The notes beneath the pieces were generated by a model. It saw only the letters and a list, made by a program, of their open reading frames with translations, did not search any database and was not told the DNA's origin. This document shows, piece by piece, positions 1,617 through 9,350 of a stretch of DNA of 64,000 bases. Location: contig CAVPSB010000032.1 of the NCBI GenBank assembly GCA_963708025.1, forward strand, positions 1-64,000. The letters run 5' to 3'. Every line of letters begins with the position of its first letter. Within the stretch, counting starts at the first letter, position 1. This DNA is from an uncultured Candidatus Rokubacteria bacterium. Lineage in GTDB: Bacteria > Methylomirabilota > Methylomirabilia > Rokubacteriales > DASRDR01. The position numbers and the translations under genes are program-made.

Positions 1617-4094
<2,478 letters not shown>

Positions 4095-4191: not shown

Positions 4192-4452
4192 ATGCGAAGC
4201 CGAGCCGCCGTCATCGTCGTGATCGTGGTGGCCCTGGTCGCCGCCACGGTCTGGTCGATCGCCGCCCCGAAGCAGTATCAGTTCACTGGCAGCGTGGTGG
4301 AGATGGACGCCAAGGCCAAGACGATCAGCGTGGACAAGGGCGGAGACGTCTGGGAGTTCTCCACCGCCGGGCTGAAGGACCTGAAGCTGAAGAAGGGCGA
4401 CAAGGTCACGGTCTACTACGAGATGACCGCGAAGAAGATCGAGGGCAAGTAG
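4192..4452 (+). CDS. Small secreted beta-barrel/OB-fold-like protein
   Basis: RBS GGAGG, signal peptide, FTGSVVEMD...LKKGDKVTVYY pattern. Confidence 0.7.
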   Translation: MRSRAAVIVVIVVALVAATVWSIAAPKQYQFTGSVVEMDAKAKTISVDKGGDVWEFSTAGLKDLKLKKGDKVTVYYEMTAKKIEGK

Positions 4453-4478: not shown

Positions 4479-5267
4479 TCAGCGTCCCCGGGCCCGCCAC
4501 TCCACGGCGCCGACCTCCGCGAGCTGGCCGAGGAGCCGCGCGGCATCCGCGTCGGCCACGCCCGCCAGCGCTGCCGCCTCCGCCGTGGAGCGCACGCCGT
4601 CGAGGGCACCCAGCAGCCGCTCGACGGCCTCCGGACAGCGCACGGTCGTGACCCGGCCGCCCGGCGCCAGCGCGATCAGGAGCCGCGTCGGCGCGCGGAC
4701 CGGCTCGGGAAGCGACGTCTCGCCGCGACGGACCGCGGCGACGAGACCGGTGACGTCCCAGTCGAGCGCGCAGATCCGCGCGTGCGCCGAGCGCGCGGGC
4801 ATCACGCCGGTGCCGTCGCCCGTCGCGCGCCAGCGCCGGGGGCCGGCTTCGGCGCGGAAGAGCGCGCCCTCGTAGGCCACCAGGTCCCGCCCGTAGGTCA
4901 CCCCGCCGAGCGCCGCGGCGAGGGCCGTCTCGACGAGCGCCGCCACGCGCTCCGCGGTCTCCGCGGACCCCACCTCGGCGGCGTCGAGGAGCGCGTCGAA
5001 GGCCGGGGCGTCGATCACGCCCAGAGGATCCAGGCCCTGGCGGCGCGCCAGGACCCGGCTCGCGGCGAAGAGCCGCACGATCCGCTCCCGGTAGAAGTGG
5101 CGCCCCATGAACCGCGCCAGGCGCGCGAGCCGCTGACCGTCCGCCGCCCGGAGCACCGCCGCCTCTTCGGCGCCGAGAGGCGCGCCGCTCCCCTCGGGGA
5201 GCCGCCGCCGGAGGTCGGCGCTGGTGAGCACGCGGAGGAGCGCGTCGTGGACGGCGCGGCCCGTCAC
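4479..5267 (-). CDS. Putative MNIO partner protein (DUF2063/RRE-like)
   Basis: GTG start overlaps the MNIO TGA (GTGA); DLVAYEGA and LDWDVTGL...PTRLLI segments; C-terminal wHTH-like LDGVRSTAEAA...LLGQLAEVGAV. Confidence 0.65.
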   Translation of the reverse strand: MTGRAVHDALLRVLTSADLRRRLPEGSGAPLGAEEAAVLRAADGQRLARLARFMGRHFYRERIVRLFAASRVLARRQGLDPLGVIDAPAFDALLDAAEVGSAETAERVAALVETALAAALGGVTYGRDLVAYEGALFRAEAGPRRWRATGDGTGVMPARSAHARICALDWDVTGLVAAVRRGETSLPEPVRAPTRLLIALAPGGRVTTVRCPEAVERLLGALDGVRSTAEAAALAGVADADAARLLGQLAEVGAVEWRARGR

Positions 5268-6064
5268 GCCGGCAGTCCGAAGGCGTCCCGGATCGCGCCC
5301 ACTCCCGCCCGCAACGTCCCGGCGGTGAGGGCGGTCGAGAAGGCGTCGAACGTCACCGCGCGCAGGCCGGACGCCCGCCCCGCCGCGTACACCGCGAGGT
5401 CCAGAATCTCCCGGTCGGGGACGGCGGCGCCGATCCAGGGGCCGCCGAGGTCCCGGTCCGGCTCCACGCCCGCGACGTGGAGCTCCACGACCCGCTCGAG
5501 CGGGAGCGCGGCGACGAACTCGCGGGGCGGCACCCCGGCGTAGTACGCCGACAGCCAGGCGTGGGAGACGTCCAGCAGCATCCCGCAGCCGCTCCCGGCG
5601 TAGAAGCGGTGGACGAACTCGATCTCGCCGAGCTGCGGCAGCGGGAGGGCGAGATAGGTCGGGATGGGCTCGAGCACCAGCGGCAGCCCGAGGGCCTCGC
5701 GGAGGGCCCGGGCGTTGGCGACGTAGTCGGCCAGCAGGTCCTCGGTGTAGAGCGGGGGGAAGACGTAGTCGACGAACGCGGCGCCGTCGGTCGTGTGGAC
5801 GCGCTGGAGGTGCTCGGCGGCCCACGGCGAGCCGTAGAGCCCGACGAGCGACCGGGCCCGCTCGAGGGCGGCGCCCTCGAGCGGCTCGCTCAGCTGACCC
5901 AGGAAGTCGTGGAGCAGCAGGACGAAGCGCGCGCGGATCGCCGCGAAGTGCGGATCGTCGGGGCGTGGGGGATCGGCCATCGCGAGGTGCTGGATCAGCC
6001 CCTGCGCGTCCAGGGTCGCCGCCGCCAGGTGGGGATTGTAGAAGGCGCCGACCGAGATGGCCAT
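5264..6064 (-). CDS. DUF692 / multinuclear non-heme iron oxidase (MNIO), divergent
   Basis: AEHL, LVLEP, GCGMLLDVSH, LPLERVVELHVAG and VPD motifs typical of DUF692 TIM barrels. Confidence 0.85.
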   Translation of the reverse strand: MAISVGAFYNPHLAAATLDAQGLIQHLAMADPPRPDDPHFAAIRARFVLLLHDFLGQLSEPLEGAALERARSLVGLYGSPWAAEHLQRVHTTDGAAFVDYVFPPLYTEDLLADYVANARALREALGLPLVLEPIPTYLALPLPQLGEIEFVHRFYAGSGCGMLLDVSHAWLSAYYAGVPPREFVAALPLERVVELHVAGVEPDRDLGGPWIGAAVPDREILDLAVYAAGRASGLRAVTFDAFSTALTAGTLRAGVGAIRDAFGLPA

Positions 6065-6079
6065 CGGCTTACATGATAC

Positions 6080-6109
6080 GGCCCCGGGCGACGCGTGCCA
6101 CCCGGGGCC
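6080..6109. other. GC-rich stem-loop between precursor peptide and MNIO gene
   Basis: GGCCCCGGG-N12-CCCGGGGCC. Confidence 0.6.
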
Positions 6110-6112
6110 GCC

Positions 6113-6137
6113 GGAGCTCCTCAGCCGAGGAGCGTCC
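6113..6137 (-). promoter_or_regulatory. Candidate bacterial SECIS hairpin
   Basis: Minus strand GGAC-GCTCCTC-GGCT-GAGGAGC-TCC; loop begins 19 nt after the TGA at 6148-6146. Confidence 0.6.
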
Positions 6138-6191
6138 TAGTTGTGTCAGGTGGGGACGATCTCGAGTGTGTCGAACGATTTCCAGCTGCAT
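6137..6191 (-). CDS. Putative Sec-containing RiPP precursor MQLEI(V/F)DTLEIVPT-U-HN (needs 1-nt correction at ~6174-6176)
   Basis: Purine-rich RBS AGGAAAGGGGG; aligns without gaps to the 6385-6438 peptide with TGA opposite TGT(Cys); TAG at 6139-6137. Confidence 0.65.
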
Positions 6192-6384
6192 TGTCCCGCC
6201 CCCTTTCCTGAATGAAATGCGTTCCGAGCTCATCATCACCGAGCCATCGGTTTGGGCGCAACACATAATCGATGCGAATCGTCTTGGCCGATATCGCAGG
6301 CCGGCGAATCCGTTGACCCGGCGGCGGCGTCAAATTTACCGGGCGATTTTGCCCTCCCCTCCCACTCTCACCAAGGAGGTCCTG

Positions 6385-6438
6385 ATGGCCCTCGAAGTGC
6401 TCGACACGGTTGAAGTTCTCCCGACCTGTCACGCCTAA
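6385..6438 (+). CDS. Putative RiPP precursor peptide MALEVLDTVEVLPTCHA (17 aa)
   Basis: Strong RBS AAGGAGG at 6373-6379, ATG 6385, TAA 6436-6438; paralog on the opposite strand; next to MNIO. Confidence 0.75.
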   Translation: MALEVLDTVEVLPTCHA

Positions 6439-6457
6439 GCGACCCTGAACTGAGAGG

Positions 6458-6497
6458 GGACGACCCCGGGTGGGCGCGGCCTGCCCGGGGTCGTCCT
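6458..6497 (+). terminator. Long stem-loop after the Cys precursor
   Basis: GGACGACCCCGGGTGGG-cgcgg-CCTGCCCGGGGTCGTCC; weak U-tail. Confidence 0.5.
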
Positions 6498-6614
6498 GTC
6501 TGGGGAGTTTGATCGGGACCTCCCACCCACCCCCCAACCCCCTCCCCCACCGTCCGACGGCCTTCGGCCTTTGGCCGGGGGAGGAGAGCCTGAGGACCCG
6601 GCTTTCACGCGCTG

Positions 6615-8006
6615 TCAGTCGGAGCCCAGGAAGGCGCAGGCCAGCGCGCCGCCCCGGGCGACGTTGACAACCGGGGCCCGGCTGACCCGGCAGTGGAGAC
6701 CGAGGTCGCCCGGCGCGTAGAACAGGCCGAGGGAGAAGTGGCACGGCCCGGCGAAGAGCCGGCCGTCCCGGAGGTACGCCATGGGGCGCGGCGTCGCGGG
6801 GCGACGCTCCTGGACAACCCAGCCGCTCGGCTCCCGGAGCGCCCGCGCGATCCGCGCCTCCCACCGGGCCGCCGGGGTCTCACGGCCGAGCAGGATCCCC
6901 TCCCCGCTCGAGCCGACGTTGGGCTTGATGAGAAGCCCGGCGGCGTGGCGGCGGACGTACTCCGGCAGATCGACGCGCCGCCCGTCCGGCGCCTCCGTCA
7001 GCCGCGCGCCGAGGACTCGCGTCCATGGGACGACGGCGGCCAGCAGCCGGCGCTCGGCCGGGGAGAAGAGGCGCCGCCACGGGGGCCGAGTCAGGCACTC
7101 GAGGAGCCCCTTGTGGCCGAACTCGCCCGCCCCGTCGGGCAGCACGGCGCCCCGCGCCCGGAGGGTCCGGAGTCCCGCGAGACGGCGCCCCCGGGTCGGC
7201 GCCGGCCCCAGATCCTCGTAGGCGAGATCGCGGTACGCGAGGTCGACACGGACGTCTTTCAGGTAGACCTCGCCCCGGACCACGCGCAGCTCCTGCGGGC
7301 GCCCGTAGGCGACCCGGATCCCGCTGGCGGCGAAGGCGCGGAGGATCCGGGGCAGCTCGCTGTAGCCCGCCACCGGCGCTGGATCCTCGAGGAACGCGAC
7401 GCCCAGCGACCCGCGCCGACCGATCCGGCGGGCCGCCGCGAGCACCCAGCGGCGGGTCAGGTCCAGGAGGTCCGGCGGATCGGCGAGTCGTCGGCGCTCG
7501 GCGGGGCCGAGCAGCGACGGGAAGACCTCCGTCTTCAGGATGGCCACGCCGGCCGTGTGGTTGTAGAGCCCGGCGAGCGCGGTGGCGTTGGTCTCGAACA
7601 GGATCGGCCGCAGACCGCCGGGTCCGGCCGCCAGCCCCACGTCGGGCCGGATCATCAAGGCCCAGGACGCCGGGCGCGCGCCATCCGGCGAGAGCCAGCC
7701 CGCGGTGGTCTCCGAGAGCGGACAGAGGGCGCGGAAGCCGTCGAGGTCCGCGTGGTAGAGGGCGGGTGCGAGGGCCTGGAGGCGGTGGACGCAGTCGGCC
7801 AGCCGGCCGAGGGTCGGCAGGAGGCGGCGCGCCACCACGAAGGGCGTGAGCGCGATCGGGTGCGGCATCGGCCGCCCGCCGACCCGGTGGCGGTGGAAGA
7901 AGTCCACCGCCGCCTCGGCGCGCTCCACCCGGTCCAGGAGAGCGCGCCGCTCGCGCGGTGGCATGTCCAGGAGTCGTGCCGTGAGCGCGGCCTCGAGGGT
8001 CGGCAT
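6615..8006 (-). CDS. Circularly permuted ATP-grasp / glutathionylspermidine synthase-like ligase
   Basis: RPD...FETNA, VPWTRVL, LLIKPNVGSSGEGILLG, WVVQE, VVNVARGG. Confidence 0.8.
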   Translation of the reverse strand: MPTLEAALTARLLDMPPRERRALLDRVERAEAAVDFFHRHRVGGRPMPHPIALTPFVVARRLLPTLGRLADCVHRLQALAPALYHADLDGFRALCPLSETTAGWLSPDGARPASWALMIRPDVGLAAGPGGLRPILFETNATALAGLYNHTAGVAILKTEVFPSLLGPAERRRLADPPDLLDLTRRWVLAAARRIGRRGSLGVAFLEDPAPVAGYSELPRILRAFAASGIRVAYGRPQELRVVRGEVYLKDVRVDLAYRDLAYEDLGPAPTRGRRLAGLRTLRARGAVLPDGAGEFGHKGLLECLTRPPWRRLFSPAERRLLAAVVPWTRVLGARLTEAPDGRRVDLPEYVRRHAAGLLIKPNVGSSGEGILLGRETPAARWEARIARALREPSGWVVQERRPATPRPMAYLRDGRLFAGPCHFSLGLFYAPGDLGLHCRVSRAPVVNVARGGALACAFLGSD

Positions 8007-8080: not shown

Positions 8081-8605
8081 ATGGCCCGGACGCAAAGCCC
8101 GCGGTCGCTGGCGCGATGGCGCCAGCGGTTCGTGGAGCGGATCGGCCGCTCGCGCGCGGCCACCCTCGCCCTCGTGGCCCGGATGCCGCAGGAGCTCGCC
8201 ACGCGGCCGCGGAGCCAGGGCGCCTGGTCCGTCAAGGACCTCCTGGCCCACATCGCCGCCTGGGAGGAAGAGGGCATCCGGCGTCTCCGGCTCATCGCCC
8301 AGGGCCACCCCGAGCGCGTGGTCTGGTACGACACGATGGCCGAAGTCAACCGGTACAACGCGCGCGCCGTGCGCGCCGCCCGGACGGCGTCGTTGCCGCG
8401 GCTCCTGACCCGGCTCGCGCGCGCCCGCGCCGGGCTCGTTCGAGCTCTCCGGCGCCTGCCGCCGCCGGCGCTCGCGGATCCGACCCACGCCCTGCCGGTC
8501 ACCGTCTGGCTCGAGGAGTTCGCCTTCACCCACGAGCGCGGCCACCGGCAGGAAGTCCGCGCCTGGCGGGCCGGCGAGCGCCAGCGCCGTTTGCACCGCA
8601 GATAG
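8081..8605 (+). CDS. DinB-family protein
   Basis: WSVKDLLAHIAAWE and HERGH motifs. Confidence 0.85.
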   Translation: MARTQSPRSLARWRQRFVERIGRSRAATLALVARMPQELATRPRSQGAWSVKDLLAHIAAWEEEGIRRLRLIAQGHPERVVWYDTMAEVNRYNARAVRAARTASLPRLLTRLARARAGLVRALRRLPPPALADPTHALPVTVWLEEFAFTHERGHRQEVRAWRAGERQRRLHRR

Positions 8606-8609
8606 AGCC

Positions 8610-9350
8610 ATGGGCGTCGATCCCTTCTTCAACGACCGCACCACCATCGACGTCTTCGAGCACGCCTTCTACGCCGGCGCCGAGGCGGCCGAAGAGGTGG
8701 CCGAGGTCCTGAGCTGGCGCCCGGTGCCGCGGCGCCTCCTCGACATCGGCTGCAACGGCGGCCTGCACGCCCTGGAGTGGGCTCGCCTCGGCGCCGAGGT
8801 GGTGGGTGTCAACGTCGCGCCCGTGGCCATCGACCTCGCGCGACGGCGCGCCGAGGGGCGGCCAGGCCCCCCGGTGCGCTTCGAGGTCGCCGACCTGCTG
8901 GAGGGCCGGTTCGACCGCTGGGGCCGATTCGATCTCGTCACCGCGCTCGGCGGTGTGTTCAACTGCATCGGGCGCGCCGACCTGGTGCCGGCGTTCCGGG
9001 CCGTCCGCGCCGCGCTGGCTCCCGACGGGGAGTTCGTCTTCGACGTGCTCAAGTGGTTCGACGGTGGGCGGAAGGTCTTCCTCCGGCGGGACGGCGCCGG
9101 CGCGCTGAAGATCGTCTGGCAATTCGACCTGGATCCCGTCCGGGGCCGGGGCCACGTCGTCGGCCACTTCCTCGAGACCGGCGCCGTCCAGGACTCCGAG
9201 CGCGCGTTCTACACGGCGCCCGAGGTGGGGACCTTGCTCGGCATCGCGGGGCTCGAGACGGTCGCCGTGGCCGGGAACCTCGCGTTCTCCGAGGACGCCG
9301 CGACCGCCGAGCCCAGTCTCTTCTTCCGCACCCGGATGCGCGACACCTGA
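8610..9350 (+). CDS. Class I SAM-dependent methyltransferase
   Basis: LLDIGCNGG, FDLV, LAPDGEFVFD. Confidence 0.88.
   Translation: MGVDPFFNDRTTIDVFEHAFYAGAEAAEEVAEVLSWRPVPRRLLDIGCNGGLHALEWARLGAEVVGVNVAPVAIDLARRRAEGRPGPPVRFEVADLLEGRFDRWGRFDLVTALGGVFNCIGRADLVPAFRAVRAALAPDGEFVFDVLKWFDGGRKVFLRRDGAGALKIVWQFDLDPVRGRGHVVGHFLETGAVQDSERAFYTAPEVGTLLGIAGLETVAVAGNLAFSEDAATAEPSLFFRTRMRDT

Follow-up and report, generated by a model that had tools for sequence, protein, structure and literature searches.

Does the short peptide encoded beside an iron-dependent oxidase gene serve as the substrate of that enzyme, and does an in-frame TGA near the end of the peptide specify selenocysteine (Sec)? These questions are raised by a locus in a 64,000-nucleotide stretch of DNA (the window; contig CAVPSB010000032.1 of assembly GCA_963708025.1, positions 1 to 64,000) from an uncultured Candidatus Rokubacteria soil bacterium of the Methylomirabilota. 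[quoted passage not shown] In a preliminary description, made from the letters of the window, they were proposed to be the twin precursors of a peptide that is ribosomally synthesized and then modified post-translationally (RiPP). Our analysis indicates that this interpretation was largely right, and comparison of related loci supports both the link between precursor and MNIO and the Sec reading of the TGA. We consider it about 75% probable that the locus is a genuine conserved RiPP-type operon in the order precursor, MNIO and partner, in which the operon copy of the precursor contains Sec, a divergent twin contains Cys and the MNIO modifies the core. Coordinates of the features are given in Table 1.

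A peptide unit conserved upstream of relatives of the MNIO gene

A scan of one genome per prokaryotic species gave 79 loci with relatives of the MNIO (46–85% identity), from metagenome-assembled genomes (MAGs) of at least six phyla (Methylomirabilota, Planctomycetota, Acidobacteriota, Nitrospirota, Gemmatimonadota and Actinomycetota). A conserved peptide had been predicted to accompany orthologous MNIO genes, and six-frame motif searches with inspection found an upstream small ORF with the peptide unit in 74 of the 79 loci; in the remaining five (L026, L043, L049, L057 and L079) the upstream DNA is too short to judge. The unit has about 13–16 residues and reads [EQK]-[IVL]-[VIL]-[ED]-x-x-E-[LVI]-x-P-[TS]-[C/U]-H, where P, C/U and H are nearly invariant. 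Cys-type precursors (53 loci) mostly contain two, three or four tandem units in frame, and TGA-type precursors (21 loci and the window) always contain one. One contig with a three-unit precursor (L035) is labelled Chlamydiota; its MNIO and precursor nest in a Terriglobales clade, and a binning or labelling error is probable.

The TGA-type unit was also searched for as a degenerate DNA pattern, D-x-x-E-h-h-P-T-TGA-H-N-T, in which only the T is fixed after the Asn codon. In 596 Gb of genomes the pattern occurred at 11 places. All 11 lie directly upstream of relatives of the window's MNIO, so the conserved small ORFs are more than a product of chance. Among metagenome contigs there were 20 matches, 17 of them real peptide genes with an MNIO downstream in 14 and the contig cut off in the other three. 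The remaining three of the 20 matches (L124, L134 and L137) were rejected as chance occurrences in AT-rich repeats. Intact-frame Sec-type homologues were found at the 21 genome loci and on the 17 metagenome contigs. Six representative precursors matched no Pfam or NCBIfam (June 2026) model even at expect values (E) up to 10, and the motif was not described in the literature searched. The precursors have no signal peptide, and a conserved protease or exporter was not seen around the loci.

The small ORFs are very short and unannotated, and hairpins follow them. They could therefore be read as untranslated DNA that forms a cis-regulatory RNA leader of the MNIO operon. We regard this as extremely improbable. 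Differences between orthologues in the peptide gene fall largely at third codon positions, a variation that follows codon patterns, and the unit is repeated one to four times, always in frame. Each small ORF opens with a start codon that is preceded by a purine-rich site, and the twin copies lie on the opposite strand and point away from the operon. In addition, a complex model described below places the peptide on the RRE-like sheet of the partner. Judged from the sequences, the peptides would make up a hitherto undescribed and widespread family, whose modified members could carry selenium.

The TGA codon as a probable selenocysteine codon

The TGA stands at the exact Cys position of the unit, and a real stop codon follows one to two codons later in the 34 distinct TGA-type sequences found in all. 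In the 28 real pattern matches (11 from genomes and 17 from metagenomes), the codon after His-Asn is TAG, TGA or TAA. A divergent Acidobacteria clade of seven loci reads TGA-CAC-stop. Bacterial Sec insertion sequence (SECIS) loops expose G/U about 20–25 nucleotides (nt) past the UGA. A SECIS-like hairpin occurs in this position in the window, and we defined such a hairpin by a free energy (dG) of −7 kcal/mol or lower, a loop start at +22 to +26 from the U of the UGA and GG or GU in the loop. Hairpins of this kind are present in 23 of the 27 distinct TGA-type sequences, as against 1 of the 51 distinct Cys-type 3' ends. The stem sequence differs by clade (GCUCCUC/GAGGAGC, GGUCC(C)UC/GAGGACC and GCCUCC/GGAGGC), and all seven Acidobacteria loci have an unrelated CCGGC-type stem in a similar place with a five-base loop that contains GU.

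The genome of the window (99.67% complete) encodes a tRNA-SeC with anticodon TCA (76.2 bits), selB (371.9 bits), selA (597.8 bits) and selD (398.4 bits), of which tRNA-SeC, selB and selA are clustered about 200 kb along the window's own contig. The best selD match (G000:C7:91381-92304) holds one in-frame TGA, so that SelD is itself a predicted selenoprotein; a second selD-like match without TGA lies on contig C23. A selB match above the cutoff was found in 9 of the 11 TGA-type genomes tested and in three of the five Cys-type genomes, with selB absent from both Nitrospirota genomes. The use of TGA as a sense codon throughout the genome was ruled out, as the MNIO gene itself ends in TGA.

Several observations weigh against Sec insertion. 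Four of the 27 TGA-type sequences (L005, L122, L127 and L133) do not have a hairpin by the strict definition and have related sub-threshold hairpins. In a 13-sequence alignment no hairpin pair changed on both sides, and 500 of 500 shuffles scored as high. Because indels put the 13 sequences downstream of the TGA out of register, RNAalifold gave only three pairs for them and failed to recover the hairpin. Single-sequence hairpin z-scores are only −0.5 to −2.3, unexceptional for GC-rich sequence, and no Rfam family matches the hairpin. The His and Asn codons after the UGA are invariant (CAC AAC), which could be a constraint on RNA and not on coding. selB was not found in 2 of the 11 Sec-type MAGs, and the window's own Sec copy is frameshifted as assembled. 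From an RNA run (X19), seven contig pieces matched within the MNIO gene, all at less than 95% identity, and the peptide genes were matched by none, so the run is uninformative on expression.

If the TGA were an ordinary stop, the operon-proximal ORF would end at ...PT, before the reactive residue, and its peptide would act as a decoy, leader or regulator; the hairpin would then serve as a transcription attenuator. The missing covariation, the second GC-rich hairpin that follows and the invariance of CAC AAC at the nucleotide level all fit this explanation. It does not account for the fact that all 28 real pattern matches have a stop exactly two codons past the TGA, of which the pattern fixed only the first base, nor for TGA-CAC-stop in the seven Acidobacteria loci. 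Moreover, no Cys-type copy was found in the available DNA of 18 of the 21 TGA-type loci, and with an ordinary stop the MNIOs of those 18 loci would have no Cys substrate nearby. The restriction of the hairpin to TGA-type sequences at that offset and the presence of selB in most of the TGA-type genomes tested also argue against it, and we consider an ordinary stop very unlikely. The TGA in the operon-proximal peptide most likely inserts Sec. The alignment of the UGA with Cys, the true stop after it, the TGA-specific putative SECIS hairpin and the complete Sec machinery of the genome support the Sec version of the peptide that had been proposed.

A frame break in the Sec-type copy and the divergent Cys twin

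The minus-strand peptide had been written with an ambiguous residue (V/F). Its ATG, TGA, His-Asn and TAG are present as described, and the ambiguity turned out to be a one-base frameshift. The frame of the ATG at 6191 reads MQLEIVRH..., and the neighbouring frame reads ...FDTLEIVPT-stop-HN-stop without a start codon of its own. The copy as assembled is frameshifted because these two frames are one base apart. There is one extra base at plus-strand A6174/A6175 (TT of GTTC), and skipping it restores the frame.

No public run matched half of the words of the stretch, and contigs of four runs were aligned to 5700–6800. One contig of run X2 (record 17; 5955–6216, five other letters) has a single gap, which leaves out the base at 6174. 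A contig of run X5 (record 21) stops at 6174, and its loose end continues as the window does one base later. Both contigs that reach 6174, from two studies and at about 98% identity, are therefore without the extra base and have an open frame from ATG to TAG; the contigs of run X1 leave 6181–6254 uncovered. In the same assembly, a weakly matching HerA/DUF87-like gene upstream of the system (1617–4094, plus strand) runs through three successive frames, with switches near 2276–2308 and 3639–3738, and is a single frame in L006, L011 and L038. Three frame breaks within less than 5 kb indicate indel errors in the assembly, and the extra base at 6174/6175 is most likely such an error. The broken frames of the HerA/DUF87-like gene may be assembly indels, or the gene may be in decay.

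The frameshift might instead be a real, strain-specific lesion, with the Sec copy a genuine pseudogene and the divergent Cys twin its working replacement. The extra base is present in the assembly as given, where the frame break is seen, no run matched half of the stretch, and the Cys twin has its own ribosome-binding site and stem-loop. Against this are the absence of the base from contigs of two other studies, the two breaks in the neighbouring gene relative to three relatives and the fact that both twins are intact in L011 and L038. We consider a pseudogene unlikely, and an intact Sec copy in the organism remains the preferred reading.

The plus-strand Cys-type ORF with its ribosome-binding site and downstream stem-loop was confirmed. 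Divergent Cys copies ending in ...VLPTCHA stand next to an intact TGA copy in L011 and L038 also, and were not found in the available DNA of the other seven Methylomirabilota loci. The region of the Cys twin is covered by contigs of X1, X2 and X5, in which the changes are 6435 C>T in X1, at a third codon position, and a missing base at 6381, upstream of the ATG, in X5. The stem-loop after the gene has no T-run, and weak miRNA-like Rfam matches at 6454–6498 (E up to 10) were attributed to the hairpin alone. Beyond it, a C-rich stretch of 106 bases (6508–6613, from the Cys stem-loop to the ligase stop) is two bases long in the X1 and X2 contigs, a length difference that is an indel polymorphism.

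Between the Sec-type gene and the MNIO start there is a second hairpin, with a GC-rich 9-bp stem, and a similar one was visible in the 120-nt stretches of the Sec-type loci inspected. It has no T-run after it, and the terminator scan was negative. This hairpin may be an attenuator that sets the ratio of peptide to enzyme. The scan for promoters and terminators gave two weak promoter-like sites in or adjoining the MNIO start and no terminator.

The MNIO and its partner protein

The MNIO scored 90.7 bits against Pfam PF05114 (MbnB_TglH_ChrH; cutoff 25), which places it in the family. Among the NCBIfam equivalogs ApyH, BufB and HvfB, it is far under every cutoff (87.4, 77.1 and 56.7 bits against 400, 310 and 360, respectively). 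The nearest sequence in the Protein Data Bank (PDB) is TglH (8hci_D, E 2.8e-11), and the genome of the window has one copy of the MNIO. The coupling of MNIO and partner genes by GTGA was seen as described before, and the partner is encoded after the MNIO in nearly all 79 loci.

For the partner protein, sequence searches of Pfam, NCBIfam and the PDB were all negative, BLASTP showed no likeness to the ligase, and profile searches gave only sub-significant winged-helix matches to N-domains of O-methyltransferases. Its AlphaFold2 model, built from a 17-sequence alignment (predicted local distance difference test score, pLDDT, 92.1), has a helical N-terminal domain similar to TglI/DUF2063 and a C-terminal three-helix/beta-sheet domain, of winged-helix/beta-sheet type, that resembles a RiPP recognition element (RRE). 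Foldseek ranked TglI first (8hi7_A, E 1.2e-5) and NGO1945 (3dee, E 5e-3) next, and the RRE domains of PbtF and PqqD ranked lower. On this model the partner matches the 'PME-type 2' class as the main text of PMC12452194 presents it.

A complex of a Nitrospirota partner with its own 37-residue two-unit precursor was modelled with an ipSAE of 0.82, compared with 0.02 for the best control; the ipSAE mark is attained by 58 of 80 solved complexes and by 2 of 110 mismatched pairs. Contact agreement of the runs was at least 90%, with a pLDDT of 60–61 for the partner. In the model, the first unit's h-h-E-T-E-E-h segment (peptide residues 6–17) rests on residues 209–215 of the partner. The model favours the small ORFs as ligands of the partner, short of showing that they are. 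Since RRE–leader complexes have already been solved, this result may partly reflect memory of the model, which tells against it as support for the operon.

Neighbouring genes

The gene described earlier as ATP-grasp-like indeed converges on the Cys peptide gene, on the same strand as the MNIO gene. Its product scored 23.7 bits against PF14403 (CP_ATPgrasp_2), under the cutoff of 32, and the same model matched 5 of 10 orthologues (E up to 0.01). Its neighbours in the protein atlas belong to the circularly permuted type 2 ATP-grasp, GSH_synthase and GSP_synth clusters. A sequence search of the PDB found nothing; the AlphaFold2 model (pLDDT 80.7) matched eukaryote-type glutathione and homoglutathione synthetases in Foldseek (E 8e-16 to 1e-13, template modelling score 0.60–0.70), and also a putative glutathionylspermidine synthase, GspS and the E-64 pathway ligase Cp1B. 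These matches to solved synthetases suggest a circularly permuted ATP-grasp amide ligase of the small-molecule kind.

Table 1. Features of the precursor–MNIO locus in the window.
Feature	Position	Strand	Description
Partner gene	4479–5267	−	262 aa; GTG start at 5267 overlapping the MNIO stop (GTGA)
MNIO (DUF692) gene	5264–6064	−	266 aa; PF05114 match; subfamily without curated equivalog
GC-rich hairpin	6080–6109	−	9-bp stem, between Sec peptide gene and MNIO start; read from sequence
SECIS-like hairpin	6116–6133	−	7-bp stem with a GGCU loop that opens at +23, counted from the U of UGA
Sec-type precursor peptide gene	6137–6191	−	ATG 6191; TGA (putative Sec) 6146–6148; His, Asn; TAG 6137–6139
Cys-type twin precursor gene	6385–6438	+	17 codons, ...VLPTCHA; AAGGAGG ribosome-binding site upstream; divergent from operon
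Stem-loop 3' of Cys peptide gene	6459–6495	+	Read from sequence
Glutathione-synthetase-like (circularly permuted ATP-grasp) putative amide ligase gene	6615–8006	−	463 aa; upstream of Sec peptide gene
DinB_2 protein gene	8081–8605	+	Neighbour of ligase gene
Class I S-adenosylmethionine methyltransferase gene	8610–9350	+	Neighbour of DinB_2 gene

The suggested synteny of the ligase with the system held in all nine Methylomirabilota genome loci and failed in the other 70 loci. The tie of the ligase to the system within the Methylomirabilota is thus one of synteny, and the absence of the gene from the Sec-type loci of Planctomycetota and Acidobacteriota counts against the overall interpretation. 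The pair of DinB_2 and class I methyltransferase genes is kept beside the ligase gene in L002, L003, L004 and L038 only, and the possible link of these two genes to the system is weaker and unproven.

Outside the Methylomirabilota, an N-methyltransferase gene of PF10017 (EgtD/EasF family) stands beside the system in 62 of the 79 loci. It is mostly divergent from the precursor gene; in the Acidobacteria Sec clade of seven loci, it follows the partner gene and shares its strand. The proteins scored 53–78 bits on the EgtD equivalog TIGR03438, whose cutoff is 290.9, and the genome of the window has no PF10017 gene. Betaine-type ABC transporter genes occur in 41 of the 79 loci. Precursor and MNIO genes are separated in Gemmatimonadota and Actinomycetota by an aldo-keto reductase gene (33/79), joined in some of these loci by a gene for a MetX-like alpha/beta hydrolase (18/79).

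Other genes were noted around individual loci. In Gemmatimonadales loci (L037, L042, L053, L060 and others) there is an LssY_C or beta-propeller protein between MNIO and partner, and ArsC-family and DinB_2/MST genes are located downstream. In L007, a gene for an M14-type zinc carboxypeptidase/AstE-AspA-like protein (91–666) lies 3 kb upstream of a Planctomycetota Sec locus; the protein could trim a C-terminal residue, and the gene is not conserved elsewhere. In the window, 4192–4452 (plus strand) encodes a small exported-looking protein that scored 27.4 bits on ExtJ of the selenite/tellurite reduction operon (NF040942), under the cutoff of 52.5. This gene is convergent to the partner gene, is kept in L003, L006, L011 and L038, and could be related to selenium.

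Evolution of the Sec- and Cys-type precursors

A maximum-likelihood tree was made of 78 MNIOs, with a midpoint root for drawing only. Fourteen TGA-type rows fall in a starred clade of 25 rows, in which the Cys-type Nitrospirota are nested. The seven TGA-type Acidobacteria form another starred clade, sister to a Cys-only group of 46 rows from Terriglobales, Gemmatimonadota and Actinomycetota. With the midpoint root, TGA-type rows are basal in both halves of the tree, a pattern that would fit an ancestor with Sec in which Cys took over twice, on each occasion with multiplication of the unit. Selenium may therefore have been the original state, as far as the sequences indicate, and Cys with more units a later substitute. 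The Sec and Cys lineages would offer a natural experiment on the benefit of selenium in a natural product.

Proposed mechanism and product

Gene content, conservation, recoding signals and Sec machinery are seen in the DNA. From these and the models we infer the following steps of peptide translation, selenium insertion, partner binding, chemistry and product formation. The precursor would be a leaderless peptide of 17 residues, whose N-terminal h-h-[ED]-x-x-E-h segment may be what the partner recognises and binds through its RRE-like domain. The C-terminal P-[TS]-[Cys/Sec]-His would be the core that is offered to the MNIO at its iron centre. SelB would insert Sec at the UGA of codon 15 in the operon copy, guided by a hairpin that begins about 15 nt past the UGA and lies mostly in the 3' untranslated region, and the second, divergent copy would supply the version with Cys. 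Most likely, it is the Cys or Sec that the MNIO oxidises. By analogy with BufB, HvfB, MbnB and SbtM, a conservative guess is that the residue adjoining the invariant His becomes a thio- or seleno-oxazole or else an oxazolone/thio(seleno)amide. Tailoring may be specific to the lineage, by the glutathione-synthetase-like ligase here and by the EgtD/EasF-like N-methyltransferase in most other phyla.

The neighbouring genes also raise the possibility that the product is not a peptide metallophore and is instead a thio- or seleno-histidine of amino-acid size, cut from the C-terminal [C/U]-H of the scaffold before N-methylation or ligation. Such a route would follow the logic of pyrroloquinoline quinone (PQQ), mycofactocin or the pearlins, and the outcome would be similar to ergothioneine or selenoneine. 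The Cys/Sec-His pair is invariant and stands at the C-terminus or one residue off, the methyltransferase adjoins most loci and follows the partner gene on the same strand in the Acidobacteria Sec clade, and the transporter genes are of betaine type. In Methylomirabilota the methyltransferase would be substituted by a ligase of the glutathione-synthetase-like, small-molecule kind, and the lack of a signal peptide and of a conserved protease or exporter also fits. On the other hand, the methyltransferases are far below the EgtD cutoff and missing from the genome of the window, no C–S lyase was seen, and the transporter is of the importer type. We also know of no MNIO that makes a C–S or C–Se bond to an imidazole. 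We judge such a product improbable.

In its most developed form, this possibility would be a ribosomal route to a histidine-based selenol or thiol, which we hold to be no more than a speculative and rather improbable proposal. The MNIO would move or couple the Se or S of Sec or Cys onto the invariant His, the residue would be excised, and the EgtD/EasF-like enzyme would N-methylate it or, in Methylomirabilota, the ligase would extend it. The scaffold would have been multiplied to two to four units where Cys replaces Sec. If true, this would be a third way to a selenoneine- or ergothioneine-like molecule, dependent on Sec-tRNA, and the first use of the 21st amino acid as a selenium donor for a small molecule.

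The precursor would be unusually minimal, as its 17 residues combine recognition segment and core in a single unit from which no leader has to be removed. The repeated presence of an EgtD-like methyltransferase and a betaine-type transporter points to a small molecule with a redox or metal-handling role in the uncultured soil phyla Methylomirabilota, Gemmatimonadota, Acidobacteriota, Nitrospirota and Planctomycetota. The Cys twin is an immediately testable substrate for heterologous expression.

Comparison with known systems

By its sequence, the system is within the MNIO superfamily and outside the curated MNIO subfamilies, the bufferins and SbtA/SbtM. The literature searched contains no paper that describes the precursor motif or an MNIO with a natural Sec precursor. 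P-[TS]-[C/U]-H matches no profile in the main-text sections of PMC12452194 that were covered. The main text of PMC12452194 does not mention seleno, Gemmatimonad, Nitrospir, Methylomirabil or Rokubacteria, and its supplementary alignments (adjamnio families) may include Cys-type members among unnamed clusters.

TglH and TglI of Pseudomonas syringae (8hci and 8hi7), which act in the pearlin/3-thiaglutamate pathway, are the nearest solved sequence to the MNIO and the nearest solved fold to the partner. Both systems have an MNIO with a downstream non-DUF2063 'PME-type 2' partner, a modified Cys at the C-terminal end of a scaffold peptide (in our case a predicted modification) and precursors without a signal peptide. 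The TglA scaffold is 50 residues long, and a PEARL enzyme adds its Cys (PMC9016710). Here, unlike TglA, the Cys or Sec is genetically encoded, in a peptide of 17 residues or in two to four tandem units, and no PEARL gene was seen. PMC9016710 also reports that TglA-Sec inhibits TglHI, so Sec is not automatically a substrate of an MNIO, and this counts against our reading; Sec would be the natural residue here, unlike the inhibitor TglA-Sec.

In bufferins, HvfA/oxazolins (BufB/HvfB; thiooxazole or oxazolone-thioamide metallophores) and MbnB/MbnC, an MNIO and a partner likewise modify a conserved Cys of a peptide. PMC12452194 also describes repeated Cys motifs in some precursors of the BufB/HvfB type. 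The present MNIO differs in its low scores on both models (77 and 57 bits, cutoffs 310 and 360). The system also differs from the bufferins in that the partner is without a DUF2063 signature (no Pfam match), the 17-residue precursor has no Sec-pathway signal peptide and there is no DoxX neighbour.

The aminopyruvatide MNIO, ApyH, is the best-scoring curated MNIO model (87.4 bits), with the cutoff of 400 unapproached. ApyH modifies a C-terminal Asp. The invariant residues here are Cys/Sec-His, unlike those of ApyH, and there is no P450 neighbour. A likeness is that ApyH has a PME-type 2 partner and acts on a short precursor at its C-terminus (PMC12452194).

The ergothioneine (EgtD/EgtB) and selenoneine (SenA-C) pathways resemble the surroundings of the system, where an EgtD/EasF-family methyltransferase, a DinB-fold protein and a betaine-type ABC transporter are found, and in both cases a chalcogen is next to a histidine. 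Their starting compounds are free amino acids, with selenosugar or gamma-Glu-Cys as the donor. Here, unlike there, the starting material would be a ribosomal peptide, the methyltransferases fall below the EgtD cutoff, and the genome of the window has none. Literature on ergothioneine, selenoneine or EgtD in combination with MNIO or RiPP terms yielded nothing relevant.

MNIO enzymes are yielding novel peptide chemistry at a rapidly growing rate. To our knowledge, all known natural MNIO substrates use Cys, Asp, Asn, Tyr and the like, and a natural Sec substrate would be new for the MNIO family. The closest precedent for a Sec RiPP is the 'selenobiotic' SbtA/SbtM, which makes thio(seleno)oxazoles and is the only described RiPP class with a genetically encoded Sec precursor. 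The likeness lies in the encoded Sec and the insertion element right after the TGA. No radical SAM gene or domain was seen among the neighbours scanned, and our precursors had no NCBIfam match to an SbtA-type precursor at E up to 10. SbtM processes both Cys and Sec substrates (PMC11002830). Unlike SbtM, which is a radical SAM/SPASM enzyme, the maturase here would be an MNIO, and if this is true, the system would be the second RiPP class with genetically encoded selenium after SbtA/SbtM.

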